DNA of 64,000 nt from Mytilus galloprovincialis. Taxonomy: Eukaryota. The stretch spans positions 63,980,144-64,044,143 of the forward strand of contig NC_134847.1 of assembly GCF_965363235.1 (NCBI RefSeq), given 5' to 3'. Below the pieces are notes generated by a model, which was given only the letters and a program-made list of their open reading frames with translations, searched no databases and was not told where the DNA came from. The translations under genes and the position numbers were made by a program. Shown piece by piece: positions 1-62,410 of the stretch (position 1 is its first letter; each line of letters starts with the position of its first letter).

Positions 1-1355
1 ATGTCATACATACATTGTAATTGTTTACTGTCATACATTCATTGTAATTGTTTACTGTCATGCATACATTGTTATTGTTTAATGTCATACATACATTGTA
101 ATTGTTTACTGTCATGTATACATTGTTATTGTTTAATGTCATGCATACATTGTAATTGTTTACTGTCATGTATACATTGTAATTGTTTAATGTCATGTAT
201 ACATTGTAATTGTTTACTGTCATACATGCATTGTAATTGTTTACTGTCATGTATACATTGTTATTGTTTAATGTCATACATACATTGTAATTGTTTACTG
301 TCATGTATACATTGTTATTGTTAAATGTCGTGCATACATTGTAATTGTTTACTGTCATGTATACATTATAATTGTTTACTGTCATGTATACATTGTAATT
401 GTTTACTGTCATACATGCATTGTAACTGTTTACTGTCATGTATACCTTGTTATTGTTTAATGTCATACATACATTGTAATTGTTTACTGTCATACATTCA
501 TTGTAATTGTTTACTGTCATGCATACATTGTTATTGTTTAATGTCATACATACATTGTAATTGTTTACTGTCATGTATACATTGTTATTGTTTAATGTCA
601 TGCATACATTGTAATTGTTTACTGTCATGTATACATTGTAATTGTTTAATGTCATGTATACATTGTAATTGTTTACTGTCATACATGCATTGTAATTGTT
701 TACTGTCATGTATACATTGTTATTGTTTAATGTCATACATACATTGTAGTTGTTTACTGTCATACATTCATTGTAATTGTTTACTGTCATGCATACATTG
801 TTATTGTTTAATGTCATACATACATTGTAATTGTTTACTGTCATGTATACATTGTTATTGTTTAATGTCATGCATACATTGTAATTGTTTACTGTCATGT
901 ATACATTGTAATTGTTTGTAATTGTTTACTGTCATGTATACATTGTTATTGTTTAATGTCATGCATACATTGTAATTGTTTACTGTCATGTATACATTGT
1001 AATTGTTTACTGTCATACATGCATTGTAATTGTTTACTGTCATGTATACATTGTTATTGTTTAATGTCATACATACATTGTAATTGTTTATTGTCATACA
1101 TTCATTGTAATTGTTTACTGTCATGCATACATTGTTATTGCTTAATGTCATGCATACCTTGTAATCGTATAATGTCATACATACATTGTAATTGCTTATT
1201 GCCATACATACATTGCAATTGTTAACTGCTTTACATACATTGTAATTGTATAATGTCATACATACATTGTAATTGCTTATTGCCATACATACATTGCAAT
1301 TGTTAACTGCTTTACATACATTGTAATTGTTTAATGCCATGCAAACATTGTAATT
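1..1355. repeat. 27-bp satellite, ~50 tandem copies (consensus tgtcatRcatacattgtWattgtttaM). The unit is a multiple of 3 and stop-free in one frame, which creates the spurious long ORFs at 1-1340
   Basis: Direct period-27 repetition seen in sequence, with higher-order alternation of ...tttac / ...tttaa variants. Confidence 0.95.
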
Positions 1356-2003: not shown

Positions 2004-2518
2004 CTATAAAATATGGCAATCATTTATTGACTGGCGTTTTTTTCAAAGTCAACAGGTCAAATTTTGCATGCTCACTATGGAAGAAATAAAGTATTATTTG
2101 TTTAAAGAATGTTACTTGCAACAACTTTTGCAATGTGCAATATAAATTTACATCTACTACTAAATCTTATAAATTGGTTTGTTACATGAAATTATTACAT
2201 AAGTATTTCTGTATTGGCCTTGTTATTGGTCCGCGGCCTGTTGTATTGGCCTGAGGTGAAGCTAATAGTTAAGTGTAGTTAATTAATAATTGAATTTATA
2301 ACCAGCAGCATTCTTAAAACATCTAACAAAACAAGTCTTTTTATTCTTATAAATATGATGTTGATGTCATAAATATGTTTTTTTTTAATTCAATGGTTAT
2401 CTTACTAAACATTTAACACTCTAATACCTGTTACAACTTTCATTAGTCTCTTTAAAATTGTTTAAAACTAGTATATAATAAAGAAATTTCCATCGTTTTT
2501 AGTCTCCCCCTAACTTAC

Positions 2519-2708
2519 CATCAATGTAACACACGCTGGTATATTTAAAGTTGAGATGAGAGCGATGGACATCATCCACACCAAACATTTAGACTGGAGT
2601 AAACAGACTAGATACATTACAGTACAATGTAGAACTTGTAATAACATTGTCTTCCATCCCAGGAGGTATATCAGTAGTATCACAGAATACGAAAGACACA
2701 CCATTCTT
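2519..2708 (-). CDS. HHAT-like exon 4 (hydrophobic multi-pass segment ...MVCLSYSVILLIYLLGWKTMLLQVLHCTVMYLVCLLQSKCLVWMMSIALISTLNIPACVTLM). The 5' acceptor is uncertain: tttacag at 2708 or gacag at ~2714
   Basis: Donor gtaagt at 2518; open hydrophobic frame; the phase join to exon 3 is not cleanly resolved. Confidence 0.35.
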
Positions 2709-2785
2709 CTGTAAATCTGTCAATGTTTAATATAGTAGGAGTATAAGTAGGAGGAGGAGGATTAGTGGTTAGTAGTAGCTATATA

Positions 2786-2810
2786 GTAGTAGTAGTAGTA
2801 GTAGTAGTAA
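2786..2810. repeat. (AGT)n / (TAG)n microsatellite
   Basis: agtagtagtagtagtagtagtag run. Confidence 0.9.
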
Positions 2811-4000
2811 TGGAGAATATATAGTATGTAATTTATTTAGTTACATACATTGCCTATAGGTTACAAAAATACATGAGAGAAGGAAAACAGAGGCGAAAGA
2901 TACCAAAGGGAAATAATTCAAACTCATAAGACAAAACAACTGATAACACCATTGCTAAAAAAACGACAAACAGACAAACTGACAAACAGCAGTACACAAA
3001 ACACAACATGAAAACTAAAAGCTGAGCAACACGAACCCTCCTAAAACTGGTGATGATGTCTGGTGCACCGTATTAAGGGTACGCATATCCTGCTCAACAG
3101 CAGCAAATAAATTTCACAAGTAGCATCCGATTCCGTAGACTATCTTGCTATTTTGTTTGAGTTTAACTGTAAATATAGATAAGAAGATGTAGTGTGAGTG
3201 CCAATGAGACAACTCTCCACCTTAGTCACAATGTATAAAAAGTTACCAATTAAACAACTCAAACACGAAAACAAACATTCTGATCTATATTAAACAAAGA
3301 GATAAACACATATGAACCACACCAAGAGACACCACTAAACAACAGTTTCCTGACTTGGGACAGGTGCATCAAACAGATGTGCTCATAAAACGCATATAAT
3401 TGTGAATGTCAAAGAACATTTTGATTAACTGATAATAAAAAAAAACTACCGTTCAAATTAGTTTTGCTTTATTTTACGAAAGCCCCATGTCTTATATATT
3501 GTATTCTGATTATGAAACTACTGCTCTGAATGTAAAATGAACATTTCCAACTGTTTATATTCATAGCGGGCGATTATTTCAATATTAAAGTTGTTATCCT
3601 TATGCCAGCAAATTAAAAGTTTGGTTGATTTGCCTGCTTTTTTTGTATAGATATTTGCTCAAGAATTGTTATTAAGATTGACATCTGCGGTCAATACATA
3701 GGGGCTTCAGCTTGTATACATTATACTTATAAATGTTTTTGGAAGTTAAGCAATGTATACAAGTTGAATCCCCGCCTATCTAGTGGTTGCAAATGTCAAT
3801 CTTAATTACATTTATACAGCCAACCAAACCTTAAACTTGTTAGCATTATGATAATAGCTTTAAGCACAGGAATAATATATTCTAATTAGTTATCAAAGGT
3901 ACGAGGCTTATAATTTAACACGCCAGACGCGCGTTTAGTCTTCATTAGTGACGCTCAGCTCAAAATAGTTATAAAACCAAATAAGTATATACGTACTTAC

Positions 4001-5281: not shown

Positions 5282-6027
5282 CTTAAAATGGGATAAAATG
5301 TAAGTCAAACATTTGTTTTCAAATAACATTCATAATCAAGTAAGTGAACGAATCGTTTGAGTTGATGGCTGATATTTGGTTGTTTTTATTCAACTATTTA
5401 TACACATGTACGTTGTTTATACTCGGTATGGACGCCTGTCTATCGTCAAACTTTCGGATTCTGCCTCCTTTTGATTTTTTATCGTTTAATAGACGTATCG
5501 TTGCTATTCAACCCCCATAATTCAATTGTTTTGTATGACCACCCTTTTGGAGCATCTTATATCACACCCGGATTTACATTTATGTTATAACGTGTAGCCT
5601 AAAGCTTTCATTGATATGGGTTGGTTTTTTTTTTTGCAGACGTTTTTTTCTTGTTTGTTCCTAAAGCTTTCTCCTTACTTTTGATTTGTTTCCTTAGTAA
5701 CCTGTCGTTTGGAATTTTAAGGATTTAAATACATGCAATTTGCAACAATATTGACTTGAAGAATGAAAATCTTAAAAATTTAAATGCAAGTAACACATTT
5801 TTTTTAGTTAGATACAATATTTACATGAACATGATTGTATCGAATTACATATACAGCTTAAACGATTTATTAAAATAATGAACAAATAGTACAAGCAAAC
5901 TAAAATTAAATCTAGGGAATCAATCACATTAAGGGGCAACTGTTAACATTTGTTAATTTCATATACAGTTATTAGTTTTTTGAAGGGCCTCCTTGTCCGA
6001 GTTGTCTAAGAAGTCTAACTATAGTAT

Positions 6028-6188
6028 TCAGGGGCGGATCCAGCCATTTTAAAAAGGGGGGGTTCCTAACCCAGGACAAAGGGGGGTTCCAATTACATGT
6101 CCCCATTCAAATGCATTGATCGTCCAAAAAAAGGGGGGATTCCAACCCCCGTAACCCCTCCCCCCCCCCCCCCCTTGGATCTGCGCCT
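6028..6188. mobile_element. MITE, G/C-homopolymer-core family (termini ggcggatccag...ctggatctgcgcc), copy 1 of 4
   Basis: Imperfect terminal inverted repeat, internal poly-G/poly-C tracts and aaaaagggggg blocks; related to 14455, 39248 and 45400. Confidence 0.6.
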
Positions 6189-6375
6189 GGTATTGTACCA
6201 CTATCCTGTCAACACTGAGGTTGCGAGTTCAAATCCAGCACGTGGCAGGTGCGCTAGACGCAAATCTTAACTGACTGAAATTGTCAGTTTTGCCGAAGGT
6301 TGGTGGTTCTTTCCGACTTCCTCCACCATTAAAAATCAACCTCCACGAAATAGCCAATAGTGTTAGAATATAATA
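6189..6375 (+). mobile_element. tRNA-derived SINE (B-box-like gagttcaaatcc)
   Basis: caacactgaggttgcgagttcaaatcc...ttaactgactgaaattgtcag... shared with 62145-62410 and a fragment at 23640. Confidence 0.6.
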
Positions 6376-9830: not shown

Positions 9831-11536
9831 AAAAAAAATTGGAATATCATGGTTAAAAAACAGTTCACGGAACTTGAACTGGTTGACTTTGTAATACAAA
9901 CACTAATATTAATAAAAAAAATATGTTTGTTGAAACATTCTTGTAAAGAATGTTTGATAAATATATTGATAAATGGAAAAGCATCGTTTATTCATCCTTT
10001 TCAAGACGGGCAAATGGGCGTAACAAGTTGAGAACATATAATATTTTAAGCAAGATTACGTACGTTGTTGAAAACTACTGCAAACTGTTGATGCCTTTTA
10101 GTGAAACTCCACCTTTGTGAAATTAAGATCTAAAAGGCTGGATTCTGGAAGGAATGGAAATTGGCGTAGACTGTGACATCGCTATTTTGAAGTGGAAAGA
10201 TCTCATTGCGGTAGGAAAAGTTGAAATACTTGATTACGGTATGAAACTTCAAATCGTTTGTCGACAATTTATGATTGTGAATTTCCCTAGGAATGGGAAA
10301 AACCTTAAAAAATCTGTCTAATTTGTATATAAATACATACTAATATTTGATAACATATGCAGAAGGATTTTATTAACTAATAGAGAGAAAGTGGCGCCGA
10401 AATATTTGCAGGTTTGTTTCTAAATTGTATGACAGCTTTTTATTTGTTTTCGTTCAGTTGTTTTTCTTTCTATATAGATAAAATCAAAATTAAAACATTC
10501 ATATTTATTTTTATTTAATAACATGAGTTGATGATTTTATAGTTTACTAAGATATCATTACTTGGATAACTTTCAGTTTAAAAATAAAAAGTGGTTTATT
10601 TCCGATGCTAAGTTTGGTAACAAAAATAAATCGGAAACCGACATGATAAAGATGCTTGATTTCTTAATTGACAAAATTTGTTATGCTTGGATGACGTGTT
10701 TTTCAACAAACAATCTACATTCTCTTGGGAACCAACTTTGTGCTTATTCTTTACAACATGTTCCTTTTGATGTAACGTATAGTTCAATTAACATACAGAA
10801 CATACAATTATTGTAACCCCCCCCCCCCATACACAGACATTTATTTCCTGTATCAAGACAAACAATCCTGACGCTGTTTTCCTTTGATCTACCTGTTTTC
10901 TGAGGAGTTGGGTGTTTATGGTTGTTATGCAGTATCTCTGTATTTACTCTTAACCTGGTAAGGTATTTTGTTCAATTAACTTTACTCAATCATAAAGAAA
11001 TGTATTTTGATTTAACTAGCAATGATAATTTTTGTATCAGAAATTTTCAAGATTTTTTAAAAATAAACAGACCGACTGAATTTTGTTGGTGATATTGATT
11101 ACTGGTACAGTATAAAGACCAGGATTATCATTACTCTAAAATTTTGTATACAAAAAAAAAAAGAATGTGTAACTGAAAACACGAATTCCCCTGCACAAGC
11201 TTTGCAATGAATGTAAGTTGTACGTACGGACGGTCAAGAGTAACACTAAATGACCCCTACGGCGGGGCATACACGTAAATGTTCATTATGCTATCTTAAT
11301 GCTGTTGATTTAAATTTGATAACATTGTTTTACCCTTCTTGTCTTGTTGCATTTACTTATTTAGCAAGTAAGAAGCACACTTTTTTTGTGGAAATAAGCA
11401 AAAAAAAAGAGCACTGTTTCATTATTTATGAGTTTGACTTTTTAAGGATGTTATTACTGTTTCTCTGTGTGTATGTTTTGATTGCTTCTTAGTTCATTCT
11501 TCATACAAAATGCACCATTCTTTACTTTTTTACAGA

Positions 11537-14454: not shown

Positions 14455-14590
14455 AGGGGGGGGGGGGGCAATGACTGACCTAAAAGGGGGCGCTCCAGTC
14501 ATGCTTCAGTGCTTCACTACATAATCAACCAAATTGTTCCCACGTAAGGGGGGCCCAGGCCCTCCAGCCCCCTCCCTGTATCCGTATACG
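14455..14590. mobile_element. MITE, G/C-core family, copy 2
   Basis: gggggggggggggcaatgactgacctaaaagggggcgctccagtcatgcttcagtgcttcactacataatcaaccaaatt... matches the 39248 and 45400 copies. Confidence 0.55.
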
Positions 14591-23639: not shown

Positions 23640-23730
23640 ACTAGCTTGTCACCACTGAGGTTATGAATTTAAACTCTGTATGTAGCAGTTTGTCTGACTA
23701 CAATCTAAATTGACTAGGATTGCCTGTTAT
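23640..23730 (+). mobile_element. tRNA-derived SINE fragment
   Basis: ccactgaggttatgaattt...ctaaattgactaggattgcctgtt matches the SINE copies at 6189 and 62145. Confidence 0.4.
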
Positions 23731-23984
23731 TGTGTCAAAGGTTGTGGTTATCTACAGATTCCTCCCCAAATAAAAAATGGCTGCCAAAATATAGCTAAGA
23801 GAGCTGAAGGTCATGTTAAATACCAACAATCAATTGATCATATAATATTCATTTTATTTTTTTATTCAAATGTGTTCAACTTTGCCTTTTTATTACATTG
23901 AAGTTATGAAACTCCAAATAACATTAAACAGATAAAAGAATTATCCAATCCAATTAAGTTTAAGGGCTTTTTTTCTTGGCTTTT

Positions 23985-24725
23985 TTATTAAGCTTGTGTT
24001 TGACTTACATTCTATTTCACTTTCACACTCTATCAGCATTCTCTCAGCCTGTACTTGTGTTTGACTTACATTCTATTTCACTTTCACACTCTATCAGCTT
24101 TCTCTCAGCCTGTGCTTGTAACTTGCCTTCTGTTTGACTTACATTCTATTTCACTTCCACTATATAAGCATTTTCTCAGCCTGTGCTTGTGACTCGCCTT
24201 GTGTTTGACTTACATTCTATTTCACTTTCACTATATTAGCTTTCTCTCAGCCTGTGCTTGTGACTCGCCTTGTGTTTTACTTACATTCTATTTCACTTTC
24301 ACTATATTAGCTTTCTCTCAGCCTGTGCTTGTGACTCGCCTTGTGTTTTACTTACATTCTATTTCACTTTCATATTCTATCAGCATTCTCTCAGCCTGTG
24401 CTTGTGACTCGGCTTGTGTTTGACTTACATTCTATTTCACTTTCACACAGCATTCTCTCAGCCTCTGCTTATGTTTGACTTACATTCTATTTCACTTTCA
24501 CACTCTATTAGCATTCTCTCAGCCTGTACTTGTGTTTGACTTACATTCTATTTCACTTTAACACTCTATTAGCATTCTCTCAGCCTGTACTTGTGTTTGA
24601 CTTACATTCTATTTCACTTTCATATTCTATCAGCATTCTCTCAGCCTCTGCTTGTGTTTGACTTACATTCTATTTCACTTTCACACTCTATTAGCATTCT
24701 CTCAGCCTGTGCTTGTGACTCAGCT
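23985..24725 (-). repeat. Satellite of ~11 units (62 or 74 bp). Each unit is a copy of the 3' end of MVP exon 22 (…AQAERMLIECESEIE) plus its gtaagtcaaacacaag splice-donor/intron start
   Basis: Read on the minus strand, each unit is caggctgagagaatgctgatagagtgtgaaagtgaaatagaatGTAAGTcaaacacaag. The array directly abuts the exon. Confidence 0.9.
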
Positions 24726-34871: not shown

Positions 34872-35419
34872 CTGTAGTAAATATTAAAGATAATAATCTG
34901 CAACTATTAAGCTTACAATATTTTTTTGCAGCTAATCAAAGTCTTTTTACCAATTAAAATTATTTTGTCATTCTGATTGATTGTTGGTGTATAAAGCCAA
35001 TTTTAACACTATTGTGCTATTTCATGGCGGTCATTTTAGCATTGATGGAGGAAGCTTGGGTACCCTGAGAGAACCACATACATTTGGCAGGAAACTGACA
35101 ATCTTATTCAGTTCAGTGTTACTGCACTTATCCAGTAACTTTTGTGGTATCACCATAGTAATGGCTAAAACAGTTTATCATCTTGACATGAGCAAGGTTC
35201 AAACTCATAGTCGACAAGCTAATGATCAGTGTAGATAAACTACTTATACCATTCTAACACTGAGACTGCATGTCATTCAGGAATTCAATTGTATAGAAAT
35301 GCAGTATTTTGACAGATGAGTTAGCCATAAATTCATTATAAAGTTCAAGAAGGTATCCTTTTTATTCAAGGTTTTCTGTATATTTTGTATATCAGCTGAT
35401 CACCACACTAGGGACTAAC

Positions 35420-39160: not shown

Positions 39161-39247
39161 CTGAAATATAAATTAATAGCATAATACCTAATCAAAGCGC
39201 TGTAAGCGCTGAAGGCAGTTAACCAAAAACCAGACAAACGTAATTAT

Positions 39248-39400
39248 GTGCAGTGGCGGATCCAGAAATTTTCATAAGTGGGAGCCCACTGCCTGCCTAA
39301 CAGGGGACCTGCTCCAGTCATGCTACAGTGATTCCCTATATAATCAACCAAATTTTTTCTCACTGAAAAAACCTCTAAATCCGCCTCTGATGTGGCATTA
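39248..39400. mobile_element. MITE, G/C-core family, copy 3 (cagtggcggatccag...ctaaatccgcctctg)
   Basis: Inverted termini; internal cagtcatgctacagtgattccctatataatcaaccaaatt block is shared with copies 2 and 4. Confidence 0.6.
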
Positions 39401-44296: not shown

Positions 44297-45399
44297 CTGA
44301 AAATATCATAAATACAATTTTAATATTATGTGTGACTTGGGCTTCTTAAACAAATGTATTTGGATTGTGACCAAATTTTGACATACCTGTTATATAGGTT
44401 TCTGACACAAAGTAAATGTGGTCAAAGATCCTAAAAATTTGAACTGGAACATTTAATTCACCTAGAATGGTCTGATATCCAAAATCTCAGAACATGGTTA
44501 GATTCAGCGAATAAAAAAACACCAAAAATTTAATTTAAGTTAAAATCAAACAAAGTTTAATTTAAGACCCTTCAAACATTAATATGGACTTATTTGAAAG
44601 CAGGGCCCCCAAAAAATATTAATGCACTATAAGATTCAGCATATGAAAGAGCTGCAATAATTCTGTTTCTGATGTAATTACCCCCAAACTCAAATAAATA
44701 AAGATATAAATAGGAAGCCACCTCATGCAATTGAAATAGGTCTGTTTGATTTCATGTTAAAAGATGAAAAATAAGATAATTTAAACCGTAAAACATGTAT
44801 AAGAATGTGTTTTGTGGATTAATCAGTCAACAAAATGGTTCATCTTTGTTTAACTTTTAATGTTGCCATTTTTTCCTTTTAAGAGGGTGGAAAAGGGTTT
44901 TTTTCATGCAATGTGTCTTGTCTTTTTCATTTCACATGCAGCCGTGAAAAAGGTTTGTTATTCAACGTGTTTCGTGAAATCGGTAAAAAGATCAATGTAC
45001 AAGACCTTGTTCATTCATTGTGAAATGGCAATTTTATTTCGTGTTCCCGCGTACAAATACCCCCTTTACGCCCCTCTTTAAATGGCTGAACACGACTTAT
45101 GCATGTGTAACCAATCTCTAGCTAATGGATTAAATTGAAGGTCACATGAATAAGGATTCAATGAGGTTGAATTATTTACTTACAAGTGAATAATTCATCA
45201 GCGATATTTCTTTGTCTATTTTGACAAAATTGAACCAAATTGGCTACTAAAAACAAGTTATTATTTCATTATTTCACTTTTACTAATGATTGTGAACCAA
45301 ATGAAATCTTAATATTCTTATTGCATCTTTTTTTTTAAAACCTATTATTGTTTACTTTTGATTAGGGAAAGTGTCACCAAATGGTTAACTTAGTACCAA

Positions 45400-45745
45400 A
45401 CAGCAGTGGCGGATCTAAAAATTTTCATAAGTGGCTGTCTAAGAGGGGGCCAGCTCAGGTCAAGCTTCAATGACTTCCTATATAATCAACCAAATTTTTC
45501 ACAGAAAAAAGGGGGGGGGGGTGGGGCTGGCAAACTGCTCCCCCCCCCCCCCCTTTTCTGAGAAAAAATTGGTTGTTTATATAGGAAATCACTGTCCAAG
45601 AGGGTGTCAGCTCCGGTCAAGTTTCAGTGATTTCCTCTATAATCAACCATTTTTTTCCCAGAAAAGGGGGGGGGGGGAGGAGGAAAAGTCCACCCCTTGG
45701 GCTCCAATTAAATCCACCTCTGAACTGGAGCCCATACAGGAAACA
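45400..45745. mobile_element. MITE, G/C-core family, copy 4. It is arranged as 1.5 palindromes: arm / inverted arm / arm, around poly-G and poly-C cores
   Basis: tgacttcctatataatcaaccaaatttttcacagaaaaaagggggggggggg...ccccccccccccccttttctgagaaaaaattggttgtttatataggaaatcactg, then a third arm at 45620-45680. Confidence 0.75.
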
Positions 45746-54701: not shown

Positions 54702-55789
54702 TTAGTTCTATGTATATATAAATAGTAAAAAACAAGGGATAATTTTAGTTCCAGTAAAAAACATAGCTTTCAAAACAACTATTTAAATTTAGAAGTGGAA
54801 AAATAAAATGATATAATTAAAATCTGTCTCTAGCTGAATTTCTTCACATTGGTTCATTTACTTTGTGTTTACCCTTCCGTTAATCAGAATGAGGTCCAAA
54901 TAAAATGATTTTAATGAAATAGAGACCGTATCGTTTATTTTCATACATTGAAAGCAATGTTTATTCAAGAATAAAAAAAAAATCAAAATGATAAAAGATT
55001 TTTAACCCTTACCATGCTGACTTGTTTTCTACAGATGTAGTCTGTATGCTGAATTGTTTTGTTTAAATTTAAAAAAAAATGCCATCATTATTAATTTGTC
55101 CTAAACTAAATGATAAACGCCCCGATTGGTCCAAAACTTGATATCCATATAGTTGAAGAACTATACTTTAATTTGTCTAAATGGTTGCTATGGTAACAAA
55201 CATTTTTGCCTTTTTATTAGTATTTTTTGCATTAAAATGTATTTTACTGGCTAGTCTAGCCATATAATCATTTCTTATCCATCTAAATAAAATTTTAAAA
55301 TGTAGTAAACTGAAAATTACTGAAAATAAAAATACTTATATCACAAAAATGTGAAATTTTAATGTAAATAATATATGACTCACCTGTTTTAAGATGCTCT
55401 TATTGTTACAAGAAATTTATAAGATAACAAATTTTTGCTTTACTACAAACAGTCTCAACACTATAATAAACATGTAATAGATCATAAGAACTAATTCAGT
55501 TTAAGTATTCAAACAAATAAAAAGTGGTTGCTATGGTAACATCTTCGTTTCCTTAGTTTCAATTGCAGGGGAATATGCATTATTAGGACAAAAGTGCAAC
55601 ATAAATTTGACATTTGTAACCTAGAAAGCAGGATATTTTATTTTTGACACATTTGACAACTTAGTTTGTAATTCTTATTACCTCTGTTTCTGTCCAGGTT
55701 TGAATAATTTCAATTTATAACTAGTTTTGTGTTAGGCTATATGATTATATGATGTTTTGATAAGTTTAAGCAATTTTAAATTTTAATGT

Positions 55790-55985
55790 ATTGTTTTCTC
55801 GTTTCAATTGTTTTACATTGTCATTTCGTGGCCTTTTATAGCTGACTATGTGGTATGGGCTTTGCTCATTGTTGAAGACCGTATGGTTACCTATAGTTGT
55901 TAATTTCTGTGTCATTTTGGTCTCTTGTGGAGAGTTGTCTCATTGGCAATCATACCACATCTTCTTTTTTATACACAAGTTTTAT
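55790..55985 (+). mobile_element. SINE/MITE-like repeat (…gtctcattggcaatcataccacatcttc family) nested inside the 3' non-coding part of the piggyBac element
   Basis: …ggccttttatagctgactatgtggtatgggctttgctcattgttgaagaccgtatggttacctatag…gagagttgtctcattggcaatcataccacatcttc. Confidence 0.65.
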
Positions 55986-56390
55986 CTGTAGATGTACAAA
56001 CTTAAACGTCTTAAACATATTTTTTCTGATAAAGGAATGGGATTTTTTGTTATGTTCCAATCAAATTCAGGTAATAAAAATACTCTTCCTTTATACAAAC
56101 AACTATACTGACAACAAATTGTATATACCATGCCGCTGAATTTTAAGCAGACAAAACCCTACCAAATCATTGACTTTTGTAAGATCATTTGAATGTACAC
56201 AACTGAAAAGATTGGTTGCCTCGTAATTAACATTTACTCCACATCTCCTTGTTTGTCTACTGACTAGTACTGTTCTTAATTAAAAATTATGAAAAGGTCA
56301 TTTGATACTGTAATTGAAAACAATAATCCATAACTACAATTTTATAATAACTAAATTGATATTGATAACATATAAACATGCACAAAGAAA

Positions 56391-58232
56391 CTATTCCTCA
56401 TCAACTGGTTGGACAGAAGAATTCTTCCATCTCTTGTAAGCAACAACATATTCCTTTTGTGTATGCCATATCTTAAAGCATGGTTCAATGCACAAAGAAA
56501 CATTACATTCTCTACATTCGTAACAAGTCTCATGACCTGGCCGTTTGCGTTTTTGTAGGTTGTTCATATTTACATTGTTCTTTTCAGCCTCATTGCAGAC
56601 TTTGCATAAACGTGCAATGTTTTTTTTTTTGCCCACCCCTACAATTCTAGAAATGAAATGTCTTTCACTTAGGCGTTCTAATTTCGCATTTGAAGGCCTT
56701 CCTACTTTATCACTTTCTATTGGGTTATTAGATACAAGTTCAGTTATTAATTGTCTTCTGAACGCTTTATGTGTTATATTAGGGTGGTCAGCTTTATACA
56801 AAGTGTATGCATCTAGAACAGCAATAGCAAGAACATGGAAAATTACCTTTTTCCACCACTTAAATGATTTAACAACACTATTAATGTAAGTAATCATTTG
56901 ATCAGACCGATCAACACCACCCATATATTTATTATAGTAGTTCACAACACTAGGTTTTCTTATATAATCATTTGTCTCACGGTCACGACGGCGTGTGTTG
57001 ACCAAATTGGTTTTATGTATAGTCGAAAGCATAAAAACAGCCTTTCCATCAAGAAATTTGACACAATTTAAAGGACCATTACTCATTACAGAAAGATCTC
57101 CTTTATTTGTAAGTTTTTTGTCTTTCAAAAATTGTGGAATACCACGACGGTTAGACCTTACAGTGCCTGTCGCTCCTACACCTAGACCATAGAGATCCCA
57201 AAATAGTTGGGGTGATGTGTAGTAATTGTCACAATACAGATTATAACCTTTTTCATACATGCCTCGTAACATATCCATGACTAAGTCATACGTCGCGCCA
57301 TTTGAGCTTGGACCGATACCCGACTTTCCTGTATACAATTTAAATTTTGAAACATAACCGTTACTGGAGTCACTGATCATGTAGGCTTTGATTCCATATT
57401 TAACTGGCTTGTCAGGACTGTAAACTCGAAATGATAGATTACCCCTCCAAGGAATCATTCCTTCATCTAATGAAATTGATTGACCAGGTGTGTAAACTGA
57501 GTGAAATCTGTTTACAATACGACCATAGAAAGTTCCAAGTTTAAAAAGTGGGTTGTAGTTTGGTTGACCTCTAGCAACATACTCATCATTGTTGGCAAGA
57601 TGGAAGAAAGATGACATTAGGAGAAATCTGTCTCTTGGCATAGTTGACGGAAAGAATGGTGTTGAAGTGACAGGGTTTTTACTCCAGTAATCAGTCACGT
57701 CTGACTGTGACAGAATACCCATTGCAAAAACTACAGCAATGAAACGCTTCATTTCTGTGGCAGTAGTGTTTGTCCACTTTCTAAACCTTGAAAATCTGCT
57801 CAAGTTATTGTTTTTATCAAGATATTGCTTTGCGTATCTGTTTGTTTCCTCAGAAATGTTCTCAAAATCATTTTCATTGACATATAAATAGAAATAATCA
57901 GAAACGGACGCATTGTCTGGGAGGTCACACTTAATTCCTGGGGTTTGCGTAAAAGGTAGAAGTTCTGGATTTTTTTCACCCATAACCCAGTTATCAATAT
58001 CAAACAAATCATCTCTTTCAGAAACATTGTCAATATTTAGGTCATCCTCAGCAAAGTCATTTTCAGTAAATCCTTCAAATTCTTCATTTTCACTATCAGT
58101 GTCAGCAAATAGTTCACATATATTTTCAGCAATAGATGTGCTGGCTTCTGCCATTATCAGAAAGTAAACACAGAAACGCCCCCTTTTTATTTTATTTTGC
58201 GAAAAAGAAAAGATAGAAAAAAATAGCTGCAT
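56391..58232 (-). CDS. piggyBac-family (DDE_Tnp_1_7) transposase, 613 aa in the longest ORF; the likely true start is the internal Met at 58154 (MAEASTSIAEN...), giving 587 aa
   Basis: Catalytic DDD context is present (…ISLDEGMIPWRG…, …YCDNYYTSPQLFWDLYGLGVGATGTVRSNRRGIP…, …YMGGVDRSDQMI…). The C-terminal Cys-rich domain is CKVCNEAEKN…CYECRECNVSLCIEPCFKIWHT. There are no frameshifts or stops. Confidence 0.95.
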   Translation of the reverse strand: MQLFFSIFSFSQNKIKRGRFCVYFLIMAEASTSIAENICELFADTDSENEEFEGFTENDFAEDDLNIDNVSERDDLFDIDNWVMGEKNPELLPFTQTPGIKCDLPDNASVSDYFYLYVNENDFENISEETNRYAKQYLDKNNNLSRFSRFRKWTNTTATEMKRFIAVVFAMGILSQSDVTDYWSKNPVTSTPFFPSTMPRDRFLLMSSFFHLANNDEYVARGQPNYNPLFKLGTFYGRIVNRFHSVYTPGQSISLDEGMIPWRGNLSFRVYSPDKPVKYGIKAYMISDSSNGYVSKFKLYTGKSGIGPSSNGATYDLVMDMLRGMYEKGYNLYCDNYYTSPQLFWDLYGLGVGATGTVRSNRRGIPQFLKDKKLTNKGDLSVMSNGPLNCVKFLDGKAVFMLSTIHKTNLVNTRRRDRETNDYIRKPSVVNYYNKYMGGVDRSDQMITYINSVVKSFKWWKKVIFHVLAIAVLDAYTLYKADHPNITHKAFRRQLITELVSNNPIESDKVGRPSNAKLERLSERHFISRIVGVGKKKNIARLCKVCNEAEKNNVNMNNLQKRKRPGHETCYECRECNVSLCIEPCFKIWHTQKEYVVAYKRWKNSSVQPVDEE

Positions 58233-59304
58233 ATTTTGGATAACTCATTGGAAAAACAACAAAACTCATTCATATTTATCAATTTATTTTTCTTGAATAT
58301 ACCTGAAAAGCCCATAAATATGGGAAAATATCAGACGATAAATAGATTTGACAACGGATTCACATTTTGTTTCTTTGATTCACGTTTCTTTTATTTCGGA
58401 AAAGAATTCCAAGTTTTCAAAGATTTTCGAGGAATATAGGTATTAACAGCACCTAGAAAGATGGATTTGTGTTCAGGCATTATTAATTTTATGGGAAATG
58501 TGTATCCTCAAGCATGGACACTGATAGAGTTACTGAAAAAAACTATAAATTGTTGGTAACAAACTGTGCGGCAACTTTCATTTTCTCTTTCGGAACGTCT
58601 CTCAAGCGAGTAAACTTCCGGTTGATATTTCCATACAATTTATGTATTTTTACCACCAAACTTCTAAATTTGCAAAATATCAATCAAATAACAACGATAA
58701 ATTAATATTCACCTTTAAGACAATATTTTATTCTTACGGTTTTAGACGAAATCTATTTATATAATACAGGAAAGGGCGGGGCATGTGCGCGGGAATTTCA
58801 TATTTCACGTAAACTGTTTTATTTCATATTTTTACTTAAATAATTCCATTTTTTTCACAAAAGAACTTTTACACGTGTCAAAATATTCTTCTATTTACCC
58901 AGACATATAGTTTTGATAATCAAATGAACAAGAATTGAGCGAGGACGAAAAGGATTTCCCTAGATGTATTTTTAGATTTTTTACGTCATGCCAAAAACAA
59001 ATTATTTTCCTGAAAGTAAAATTAAAGTGTATATTTGTTTATTATAAAGACTTAAAATGGTTCAAATTGAATAATGGATATAGATCTGATGGCTCATTCA
59101 AATTTAAACTCGGAGTTTTGTGATTATGCGAGGATTTGAAGGTTTTTTGAAAGGTCAGAAAATTGCCAGTGTAACCCGTCAAAAGACGGGTTCCGCACTG
59201 AGAACGACGACGTCAAACCCGTCAAAAGACGGGATCCGCATGGTAAGGGTTAATGCAAAGTTGCAAAAGAAAAATTCATATGACAGTGTGAGAGAAAAAT
59301 ACTA

Positions 59305-62150: not shown

Positions 62151-62410
62151 GTTTTTCTCCTTCTTTCTGACCGGGATCTCAGTGCCCAAAAGGTCTAAGT
62201 TGTCAAACTTCTACATTGCTAGCCTATCAACACTGAGGTTGTGAGTTCGAATCCCCCATGGGGAAGGTGCACTTTACTCCAATCTTAATTGACTAGGATT
62301 GTCAGTTTTTATAATGGAGGTATTACCGTAGGTGATTTTCTTTGAGCACTCCAGCTGCCTCCACCAATGACCACCACAAAATAGAACATTAGTGCTGAAA
62401 GTGGTGTTTA
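62145..62410 (+). mobile_element. tRNA-derived SINE, full-length copy (A-box-like tctcagtgcc, B box gagttcgaatccc)
   Basis: gaccgggatctcagtgcccaaaagg…caacactgaggttgtgagttcgaatcccccatgg…ttaattgactaggattgtcag…; copies at 6189 and 23640, with a 5'-only fragment at 61380-61470. Confidence 0.65.

Follow-up and report, generated by a model that had tools for sequence, protein, structure and literature searches.

Two families of putative non-autonomous hAT elements, one copy internally rearranged, at an MVP locus of Mytilus

Results

The locus and its repeat copies

The window, by which we mean the whole 64,000-nucleotide stretch of Mytilus galloprovincialis DNA analysed here, is AT-rich eukaryotic sequence (68% A+T) and carries on its minus strand an MVP paralogue whose exons share 93-99% nucleotide identity with a Mytilus coruscus MVP transcript. 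A search of other Mytilus assemblies for orthologous MVP loci yielded a transcript contig only. Four repeat copies, designated c1 to c4, were located in it (Table 1). As the preliminary description of this DNA had indicated, repeats of this kind sit in MVP introns: c4 lies in intron 1, between the exons at 46603-46539 and 44297-44163, and the intron 4 copy, c3, is separated by some 90 bp from the exon starting at 39161. Copy c2 is found about 3.4 kb past the MVP 3' UTR. An ORF at 1641-1997, HHAT-like as judged by eye, lies some 4 kb away from c1. A SINE-like repeat next to c1 begins roughly 6 bp rightward of the insertion point, so that none of its other copies extends across the site; it had no match in the SINE library of PMC10294476. 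The window also harbours an intact piggyBac transposase, a protein identical to one in GCA_963676685.2, the M. edulis assembly of the Darwin Tree of Life (PMC11304980). A scan of the whole window with ARAGORN and against Rfam found nothing.

Table 1. Repeat copies, their parts, homopolymers and target-site duplications (TSDs) in the window, and TSDs of related elements elsewhere. Positions are those of the window.
Feature	Position	Strand	Description
c1, family A MITE	6029-6189	+	161 bp; 5' end CAGGGGCGGATCCAG, reverse complement of 3' end CAGGCGCAGATCCAAG
c1 TSD	6024-6028, 6190-6194		GTATT/GTATT, 5/5
c1 homopolymer	6160-6174		C15
c2, family B, 5'-truncated	14455-14590	+	begins at G13 run; degenerate 3' end
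c2 homopolymer	14456-14468		G13
c3, family B MITE	39251-39389	+	139 bp; termini CAGTGGCGGATCCAGA / reverse complement CAGAGGCGGATTTAGA
c3 TSD	39246-39250, 39390-39394		ATGTG/ATGTG, 5/5
c4, rearranged family B MITE	45404-45722	+	319 bp; termini CAGTGGCGGATCTAAA / reverse complement CAGAGGTGGATTTAAT
c4 TSD	45399-45403, 45723-45727		AACAG/AACTG, 4/5
c4 5' terminus	45404-45434
c4 arm A1	45435-45521	+	family core ending in G11 run
c4 homopolymer	45511-45521		G11, then TGGGG
c4 loop 1	45522-45539	+	TGGGGCTGGCAAACTGCT; canonical loop between G-run and C-run (compare L054)
c4 inverted arm A'	45540-45594	-	C14 and reverse complement of the core's 3' 41 nt; ends CACTG
c4 homopolymer	45540-45553		C14
c4 arm A2	45592-45677	+	second direct core copy, ending in G12
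c4 homopolymer	45666-45677		G12
c4 loop 2 and canonical 3' terminus	45678-45722
L062, M. trossulus, family A			TSD TGGTA/TGGTA
L064, M. trossulus, family A			TSD TATAC/TATAT
L023, nested family A-like copy			TSD TTCCA/TTCCC
L063, M. edulis, autonomous			TSD GCATG/GCATG
L065, Pinctada imbricata, autonomous			TSD GCAGG/GCAGG
L066, ENA contig, autonomous			TSD TACTT/TACTT
L067, Branchiostoma lanceolatum, autonomous			TSD GTCGG/GTCGG

Two MITE families

The repeats of the window are real and belong to two MITE families, A and B, not to one. In the 64 kb, the terminus CAGNGGCGGATCYA occurs six times with at most two mismatches (0.36 occurrences expected by chance) and the six matches face inward in three pairs, at 6029/6189, 39251/39389 and 45404/45722. 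The core TATATAATCAACCAAATT was found at five sites, with 0.6 expected; c2 and c3 have one each and c4 the remaining three, one of which is on the minus strand. BLAST and nhmmer showed that the family B members c2, c3 and c4 have the core CAGTGATTCCCTATATAATCAACCAAATTTTTC in common, with pairwise BLAST E-values from 1e-10 to 1e-21, while the match of c1 to c3 and c4 is confined to about 32 nt of the terminus and does not include the family B core. Common to families A and B are only the terminal inverted repeat (TIR) CAGNGGCGGATCYAG and the neighbouring G/C runs. The initial grouping of four related copies into a single family thus stands for the relatedness of c2, c3 and c4 but not for c1, which shares the termini only. 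Shared termini, which the grouping had also presupposed, were found as pairs in c1, c3 and c4, where 13-15 of the first 16 positions match. The 5' inverted repeat is missing from c2, whose degenerate 3' terminus matches at 9 of 15 positions; its nhmmer match to family B has an E-value of 2.5e-31 and covers model positions 22-150. An nhmmer search over the window revealed no copy beyond c1-c4.

The designation as MITEs was correct in kind. The window copies are 136-319 bp long, hence below about 600 bp, and non-coding, with TIRs (c2 lacking the 5' terminus) and flanking TSDs; the sole ORF, of 92 aa across c4, had no homologue among 5.8 billion proteins in a protein search. Look-ups of this ORF and of the ORF beside c2 returned no record. 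The genome is one in which DNA transposons and MITEs are known to abound (PMC10294476).

Our census is small: besides the four copies in 64 kb, it includes a handful from roughly 150 kb of Mytilus sequence elsewhere. The further copies come from the M. trossulus loci L062 and L064, the former with a family A homologue of c1 at L062:6940-7082, and from the ENA contigs L023 and L054, which carry Mytilus-type family B copies and emerged from a terminus scan of metagenomes that returned 50 loci. ORFs beside the terminus matches in the metagenomes encode host genes or LINE reverse transcriptases, no transposases. Contig L054 displays the canonical family B layout, ...CCCAGAAAAGGGGG-TCCCTTA-CCCCCTGGGCTC...AATCCGCCTATG, written in shorter form as AAAAGGGGG-TCCCTTA-CCCCCTGGGCTC.... 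Copy c3 is an internal-deletion derivative without the module of G-run, loop and C-run. Scans of viral contigs with the core and the terminus gave chance matches only (L007-L009, L061), and a literature text search for the terminus sequence retrieved cloning primers only.

Five-base-pair target-site duplications and the hAT assignment

The preliminary description had proposed TA or TTA as the TSD. This is wrong, because the flanks of the three complete copies, c1, c3 and c4, repeat exactly 5 bp; of the lengths from 2 to 10 bp, no other fits at these copies. With the elements outside the window included, a 5-bp TSD was found in ten elements, seven of them with 5/5 and three with 4/5 identical positions. 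This length is common to every Mytilus copy and to four autonomous relatives, and differs from the 8 bp canonical for hAT elements. In a further autonomous copy in L064, which is 3'-truncated, no TSD was found.

The window termini start with CAGTG, CAGGG or CAGAG and fit the hAT terminal motif YARNG (PMC3014272), which together with short inverted repeats of 5-27 bp characterizes hAT elements (PMC3014272, PMC3517528). In the curated bivalve class II library of Martelossi et al. 2023 (PMC10294476), the element hAT_A.kagoshimensis_7, labelled hAT-Tip100, is 4,130 bp long, has the termini CAGGCGCGGATCCAGACGGGGG... and ...CCCCCCCTAACATAGAATCCTGGATCCGCCACTG and contains an ORF of 1,070 aa in which DUF4371 and an OTU-like domain were recognised. 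Its transposase portion, used as query in a protein search, identified Mytilus homologues. The M. edulis homologue, at L063:8211-13845 (GCA_905397895.1), spans 5,635 bp including the P0152 gene, has the termini CAGTGGTGGATCTAGG and, as reverse complement, CAGGGGTGGATCCAGG, and codes for a fusion of an OTU-like protease domain and a DUF4371/hAT transposase. P0152 matches DUF4371 with E = 2e-18 and Dimer_Tnp_hAT with 20.7 bits, just below the Pfam cut-off of 21.4, which its homologue P0122 passes with 26.4 bits. The library element and the M. edulis homologue have termini (CAGGCGCGGATCCAG / CAGTGGCGGATCCAG) nearly identical to those of the window copies, with G or C runs just inside. Like the window copies, the homologous elements of Mytilus, Pinctada and Branchiostoma have 5-bp TSDs; in Pinctada, Branchiostoma and L066 the termini are the same and the TSDs perfect. 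Moreover, c1 can be aligned over its first 33 nt, including the G-run, to the 3' end of the M. edulis element. Elements of this type differ from the window copies in being coding and 4.1-5.6 kb long, and the window copies share with them about 15-33 terminal nt only.

Judged by sequence, the window copies are non-autonomous hAT elements of the 5-bp ("hAT5-type") kind, typed by TSD length, because an autonomous hAT element has the same termini, a 5-bp TSD and a DUF4371/hAT-type transposase. The candidate autonomous partner is the L063-type element, which shares its termini with families A and B; the 14 of 15 matching terminal bases suggest that it may mobilise the window copies in trans. From known hAT behaviour, a transposase made elsewhere in the genome would bind the 14-16-bp TIRs CAGNGGCGGATCYAG and the adjacent subterminal G/C runs, cut out the MITE, which has no gene of its own, and paste it in. 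Staggered target cuts 5 bp apart in this lineage would leave the 5-bp TSDs.

Families of hAT elements whose TSDs measure 5 bp are named as a recognised group, hAT5, in PMC12730594, which cites Kapitonov and Jurka 2007 (Repbase Reports); the departure from 8 bp is what defines this group. The window elements resemble this group in the 5-bp TSD, the short TIRs starting with CAGNG and the autonomous partner with a hAT-type transposase; both occur in animal genomes, and the amphioxus element L067 has the same termini. Nevertheless, the library's sole hAT-hAT5 entry (A. kagoshimensis_18) has different termini, CAGGCTTTCAACC, whereas the entry with the window termini is the one labelled hAT-Tip100. 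A further likeness is to Mar, a hAT Buster MITE of Drosophila willistoni, which is also short, non-autonomous and present in many copies in or near genes, and whose 11-bp inverted repeat CAG(G/A)GGTAGGC resembles at its start the CAGRGG of the window; Mar differs by its length of 610 bp, its 8-bp TSD with the consensus nnnTAnnn and its lack of G/C homopolymers (PMC3517528).

We regard it as practically out of the question that the superfamily is instead Transib, or Tc1/mariner or PIF-Harbinger. Transib elements generate 5-bp TSDs and end in CACNNTG, as in RSS heptamers. The length of the duplication equals that of the window copies, but the window termini read CAG(T/G/A)GG, or CAGNGGC, not CACNNTG, and the partner elements with these termini encode DUF4371/hAT-type transposases. 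Stowaway (Tc1/mariner) and Tourist (PIF/Harbinger) MITEs were rejected as well, as the three complete copies show no 2- or 3-bp TSD and neither a TA nor a TTA duplication fits c1, c3 or c4.

Subterminal G/C runs

At the base composition of the window, a G run of at least 12 nt is expected about 1e-5 times. Long homopolymers had been noted before in all four copies, with lengths of 11-16 nt; those present, in c1, c2 and c4, range from 11 to 15 nt, and the tract in c4 first given as G13 is G11. Copy c1 has, in addition to its C15 near the 3' end, a run of G7 near the 5' end. Subterminal G/C runs recur in about 15 elements, and the order of G inside the 5' end and C inside the 3' end was observed in family A, in all the autonomous elements and in the MITEs with 8-bp TSDs described below (up to G11/C11). 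At homologous positions of related copies the lengths differ: G5 in L063 and G13 in L064, C15 in c1 and few C in the L062 copy, G13 in c2 and G5 in L054. These differences support the suspected length instability of the homopolymers.

Because the runs recur at the element ends and vary in length at homologous positions, we read them as an inherited part of the subterminal inverted repeat that expands and contracts by slippage, not as random low complexity. The long homopolymers are expanded versions of short G/C runs conserved in autonomous and non-autonomous members, for which a role in transposase recognition is possible. A G-quadruplex motif (four G-tracts of at least 3 nt with loops of 1-7 nt) was found at 45511-45526 of the plus strand; the C strand has it at 6146-6174 and 14554-14576. 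All three are motif matches only. The tracts, along with the c4 palindrome, are likely to cause difficulties when mussel genomes are sequenced and assembled and variants are called, and the exact tract lengths given here could be off by a base or two.

Anatomy and folding of c4

Copy c4 contains a 54-nt internal segment in triplicate, the second of the three being in inverted orientation. After the first C-run, the element continues with the complement of the sequence preceding the G-run instead of the 3' end, and the CACTG that closes the inverted arm A' overlaps the CTG that starts arm A2. Arms A' and A2 are 92% complementary over 53 nt, A1 and A' 87% over 54 nt, which bears out the order of arm, inverted arm and arm first reported, with arms of about 50 bp pairing at about 90%. 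A1 and A2 form a direct repeat of 86 nt at 85% identity with a spacing of 157, and A' was recovered by nhmmer as a minus-strand match at 45595-45521 (E = 3.9e-12). The divergence of the arms amounts to 8-19%, including indels (A1 and A2 are 81-85% identical), and the two loops are 74% identical. A' is nearer to A2 (90-92%) than to A1 (84-87%). At a position where c3 and L054 read ATTCCC and c2 a divergent CTTCAC, the three arms have a derived T in common (ATTTCC or ACTTCC). Within c4 the terminus motif, with up to two mismatches, occurs only at the two ends (45404 and 45709-45722), and among the other family B copies seen none has an inverted arm.

The two alternative hairpins of c4, folded as single-stranded DNA, have energies of -46.7 and -49.4 kcal/mol (z = -11.4 and -11.5), no shuffled sequence being as stable, and the whole of c4 reaches -69 kcal/mol (z = -7.2). 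The RNA folds in the sense of the MVP pre-mRNA have stems of more than 50 bp and energies of -88.6 and -85.3 kcal/mol (z about -11.5). Folding is unremarkable in the remaining copies, with z-scores of the DNA fold of -2.9 for c3, -1.5 for c1 and -0.2 for c2. Thus the very stable hairpins that had been ascribed to the family are a property of c4, not of the family.

Discussion

Taken as a whole, our data are best explained by four copies that are, in all likelihood, non-autonomous hAT MITEs of Mytilus, of which c4 is an old internal fold-back rearrangement. The finding is real but ordinary: two non-autonomous hAT families and one rearranged copy. For annotation, its value is that two Mytilus MITE families are placed in a hAT lineage with a 5-bp TSD, that a candidate autonomous partner is named and that the G/C homopolymers can be treated as inherited, length-unstable parts of the element ends. 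Nothing here alters the existing knowledge of transposons. What goes beyond routine is the 5-bp TSD class with its partner, the unstable subterminal runs and the coexistence of 5-bp and 8-bp TSDs on near-identical termini in different hosts.

Both inverted triplication by fold-back or template switching (DUP-TRP/INV-DUP) and aberrant gap repair of hAT and P elements are known processes. The anatomy of c4 is best explained by a template switch through fold-back that took place long ago. A small hairpin composed of G-run, loop and C-run is already present in the family. At this hairpin the nascent strand would have folded back during DNA synthesis, either in replication or in gap repair after excision, and would have served as its own template over about 40 nt, as far as CACTG. 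It would then have re-annealed to the template at the upstream CTG microhomology, so that the core was copied again. Two template switches in one round of synthesis are suggested because the junctions coincide with the G/C mini-hairpin and with a microhomology of 3-5 nt, and the event appears to be old because the three arms differ by 10-19%. In the threefold segment with its middle copy inverted, and in junctions at a short inverted repeat and at a microhomology of 3-5 nt, c4 is like the DUP-TRP/INV-DUP triplications; it differs in scale, these spanning kilobases and c4 tens of bases within a single MITE, and in that its arms have since diverged. On this reading, c4 is a neat miniature case of inverted triplication by fold-back.

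A mosaic origin, in which repair of a double-strand gap switched among dispersed family B copies, one of them inverted, seems to us rather doubtful. It would accommodate arms that differ by 10-19% and loops that differ by about 26%, as well as the greater distance of A1 from A' and A2 than of these two from each other; the latter is not predicted by one event followed by equal decay, unless conversion between arms intervened or the difference is due to chance over 41 nt. Template switching between members does happen, as seen in the L023 chimera, which has a piece of the family B core inside family A termini. Nevertheless, a single source copy is favoured over a donor mosaic because the derived T is common to all three c4 arms and absent from c3, c2 and L054, and the position of junction 1 exactly at the element's own G-run/loop/C-run hairpin and of junction 2 at a CTG microhomology within the c4 unit fits an intramolecular event. 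The same chimeric contig contains a family A-like element inside a family B element with its own 5-bp TSD, so nesting is a precedent to be considered for c4; however, two or three MITEs inserted head-to-head, in the manner of a "double Ds", would have left a TIR terminus or a duplicated 5-mer at the arm junctions, where neither is seen, and of the core only the 3' 54 nt are represented in the inverted arm. We give such an insertion very little chance. An artefact of sequencing or assembly (such as a fold-back chimera or homopolymer miscalls) is slighter still in probability: long G/C homopolymers and palindromes are error-prone to sequence and the exact c4 ORF was found in no other public assembly, but fold-back artefacts give identical arms, while those of c4 differ by 8-19% with indels, and independent assemblies and species show G/C runs at corresponding places in the element. 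The absence of internal termini and the diverged arms therefore speak against both nested insertion and assembly artefact. Finally, that the c4 hairpin has been co-opted, as a small-RNA precursor or a regulatory RNA or DNA structure, is very unlikely in our view. It lies in the transcribed intron 1 of MVP and its hairpins in the pre-mRNA sense have the long stems given above, but it matches no Rfam family, and a rearrangement by-product accounts fully for the structure, whose arms are decaying and show no sign of compensatory change.

One point of possible interest to specialists is that the same terminus is found with 5-bp and with 8-bp TSDs. The near-identical 30-nt terminus (CAGTGGCGGATCYARAAATTTTCA followed by a G-run) is accompanied by 5-bp TSDs in Mytilus, Pinctada and amphioxus and by 8-bp TSDs in a GC-richer host. 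We suggest, tentatively and with more doubt than confidence, that the 5-bp and 8-bp sets have closely related transposases and that the subterminal G/C runs may act as a functional recognition or structural signal. If so, this lineage would offer a natural pair for studying what sets the spacing of hAT target cuts. The 8-bp TSD is the classical hAT signature, and in the GC-richer animal host it was observed in at least 10 MITEs. Many such MITEs, of the form CAGTGGCGGATCCAAAAATTTTCAA-Gn...Cn-TTTGAATCCGCCACTG, are present in the GC-richer metagenome contigs, among them Ga0056115, Ga0056116 and Ga0209568, where their 8-bp TSDs are clean, as for example ACTGTAAC, CTAGCAAG, TGCTTAGA, CAGCCATC and CCTCTCTC.

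A piggyBac element in the window

Besides the MITEs, the window contains an apparently intact piggyBac element with the inverted repeat CCCTTACCATGC and an ORF for its transposase. A protein identical to this transposase is encoded at L001, another M. edulis locus, where the DNA shows ~99.9% identity to the window element across 4.2 kb, and also by ENA and Logan contigs. The element has probably been active recently.

Positions of mobile elements and repeats in the window and at other loci
Feature	Position	Strand	Remarks
piggyBac element, apparently intact	55006-59249 (55002-59253 with flanking TTAA)		TTAA duplication on each side
piggyBac transposase ORF	56391-58232	-	613 aa; PF13843 match
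SINE-like dispersed repeat	6195-6300; 62219-62309; 35000-35116; 23640-23776		tRNA-like B-box
Tandem array	24011-24656		~61-bp units; within MVP intron
Minisatellite	1-1340		long repeat ORFs on both strands
C12 homopolymer	10817-10828		
Autonomous hAT element, same lineage	L063:8211-13845		M. edulis
Autonomous hAT element, same lineage	L065:3992-9384		Pinctada imbricata
Autonomous hAT element, same lineage	L066:4661-9797		ENA metagenome
Autonomous hAT element, same lineage	L067:3991-10316		Branchiostoma lanceolatum
Family A-like element inside family B element	L023 (ERZ887851 contig) ~2480-3470		5-bp duplication TTCCA/TTCCC

hAT elements and MITEs at loci outside the window

Autonomous hAT elements of the same lineage were found at four loci. 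The transposases of the M. edulis (Herpes_teg_N, PF04843) and A. kagoshimensis library (OTU, PF02338) elements each carry a fused OTU-like protease domain at the N-terminus; the domain matches of the L065, L066 and L067 products were DUF4371 and FAM200-ZBED5 RNase-like only. The homologues carry the NCBI label '52 kDa repressor of the inhibitor of the protein kinase-like'.

MITEs at 10 metagenome loci (L010, L016, L028, L030, L031, L036, L037, L041, L048 and L055) have a terminus with the same ~30 nt as Mytilus family B and are flanked by clean target duplications of 8 bp, not 5 bp; the contigs bearing them have 40-50% GC and come from animal host(s). At a further locus, L023, the family A-like element nested within a family B element itself has a family B core fragment internally and is therefore a chimera. 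The entire nested unit is tandemly duplicated with a period of 741 bp.

Other repeats in the window

The SINE-like repeat, with the tRNA-like B-box GGTTGCGAGTTCAAATCC, starts ~6 bp to the right of the family A copy c1, and neither ARAGORN nor Rfam called a tRNA at the repeat. The C12 homopolymer showed no association with any MITE-family terminus. Within the major-vault-protein paralogue, each unit of the tandem array is similar to the 3' end of the exon just before the array, corresponding to positions 2206-2258 of the L060 transcript. At the start of the window the ORFs of the minisatellite encode Cys/His-rich repeats with units such as CIHCNCLLS.
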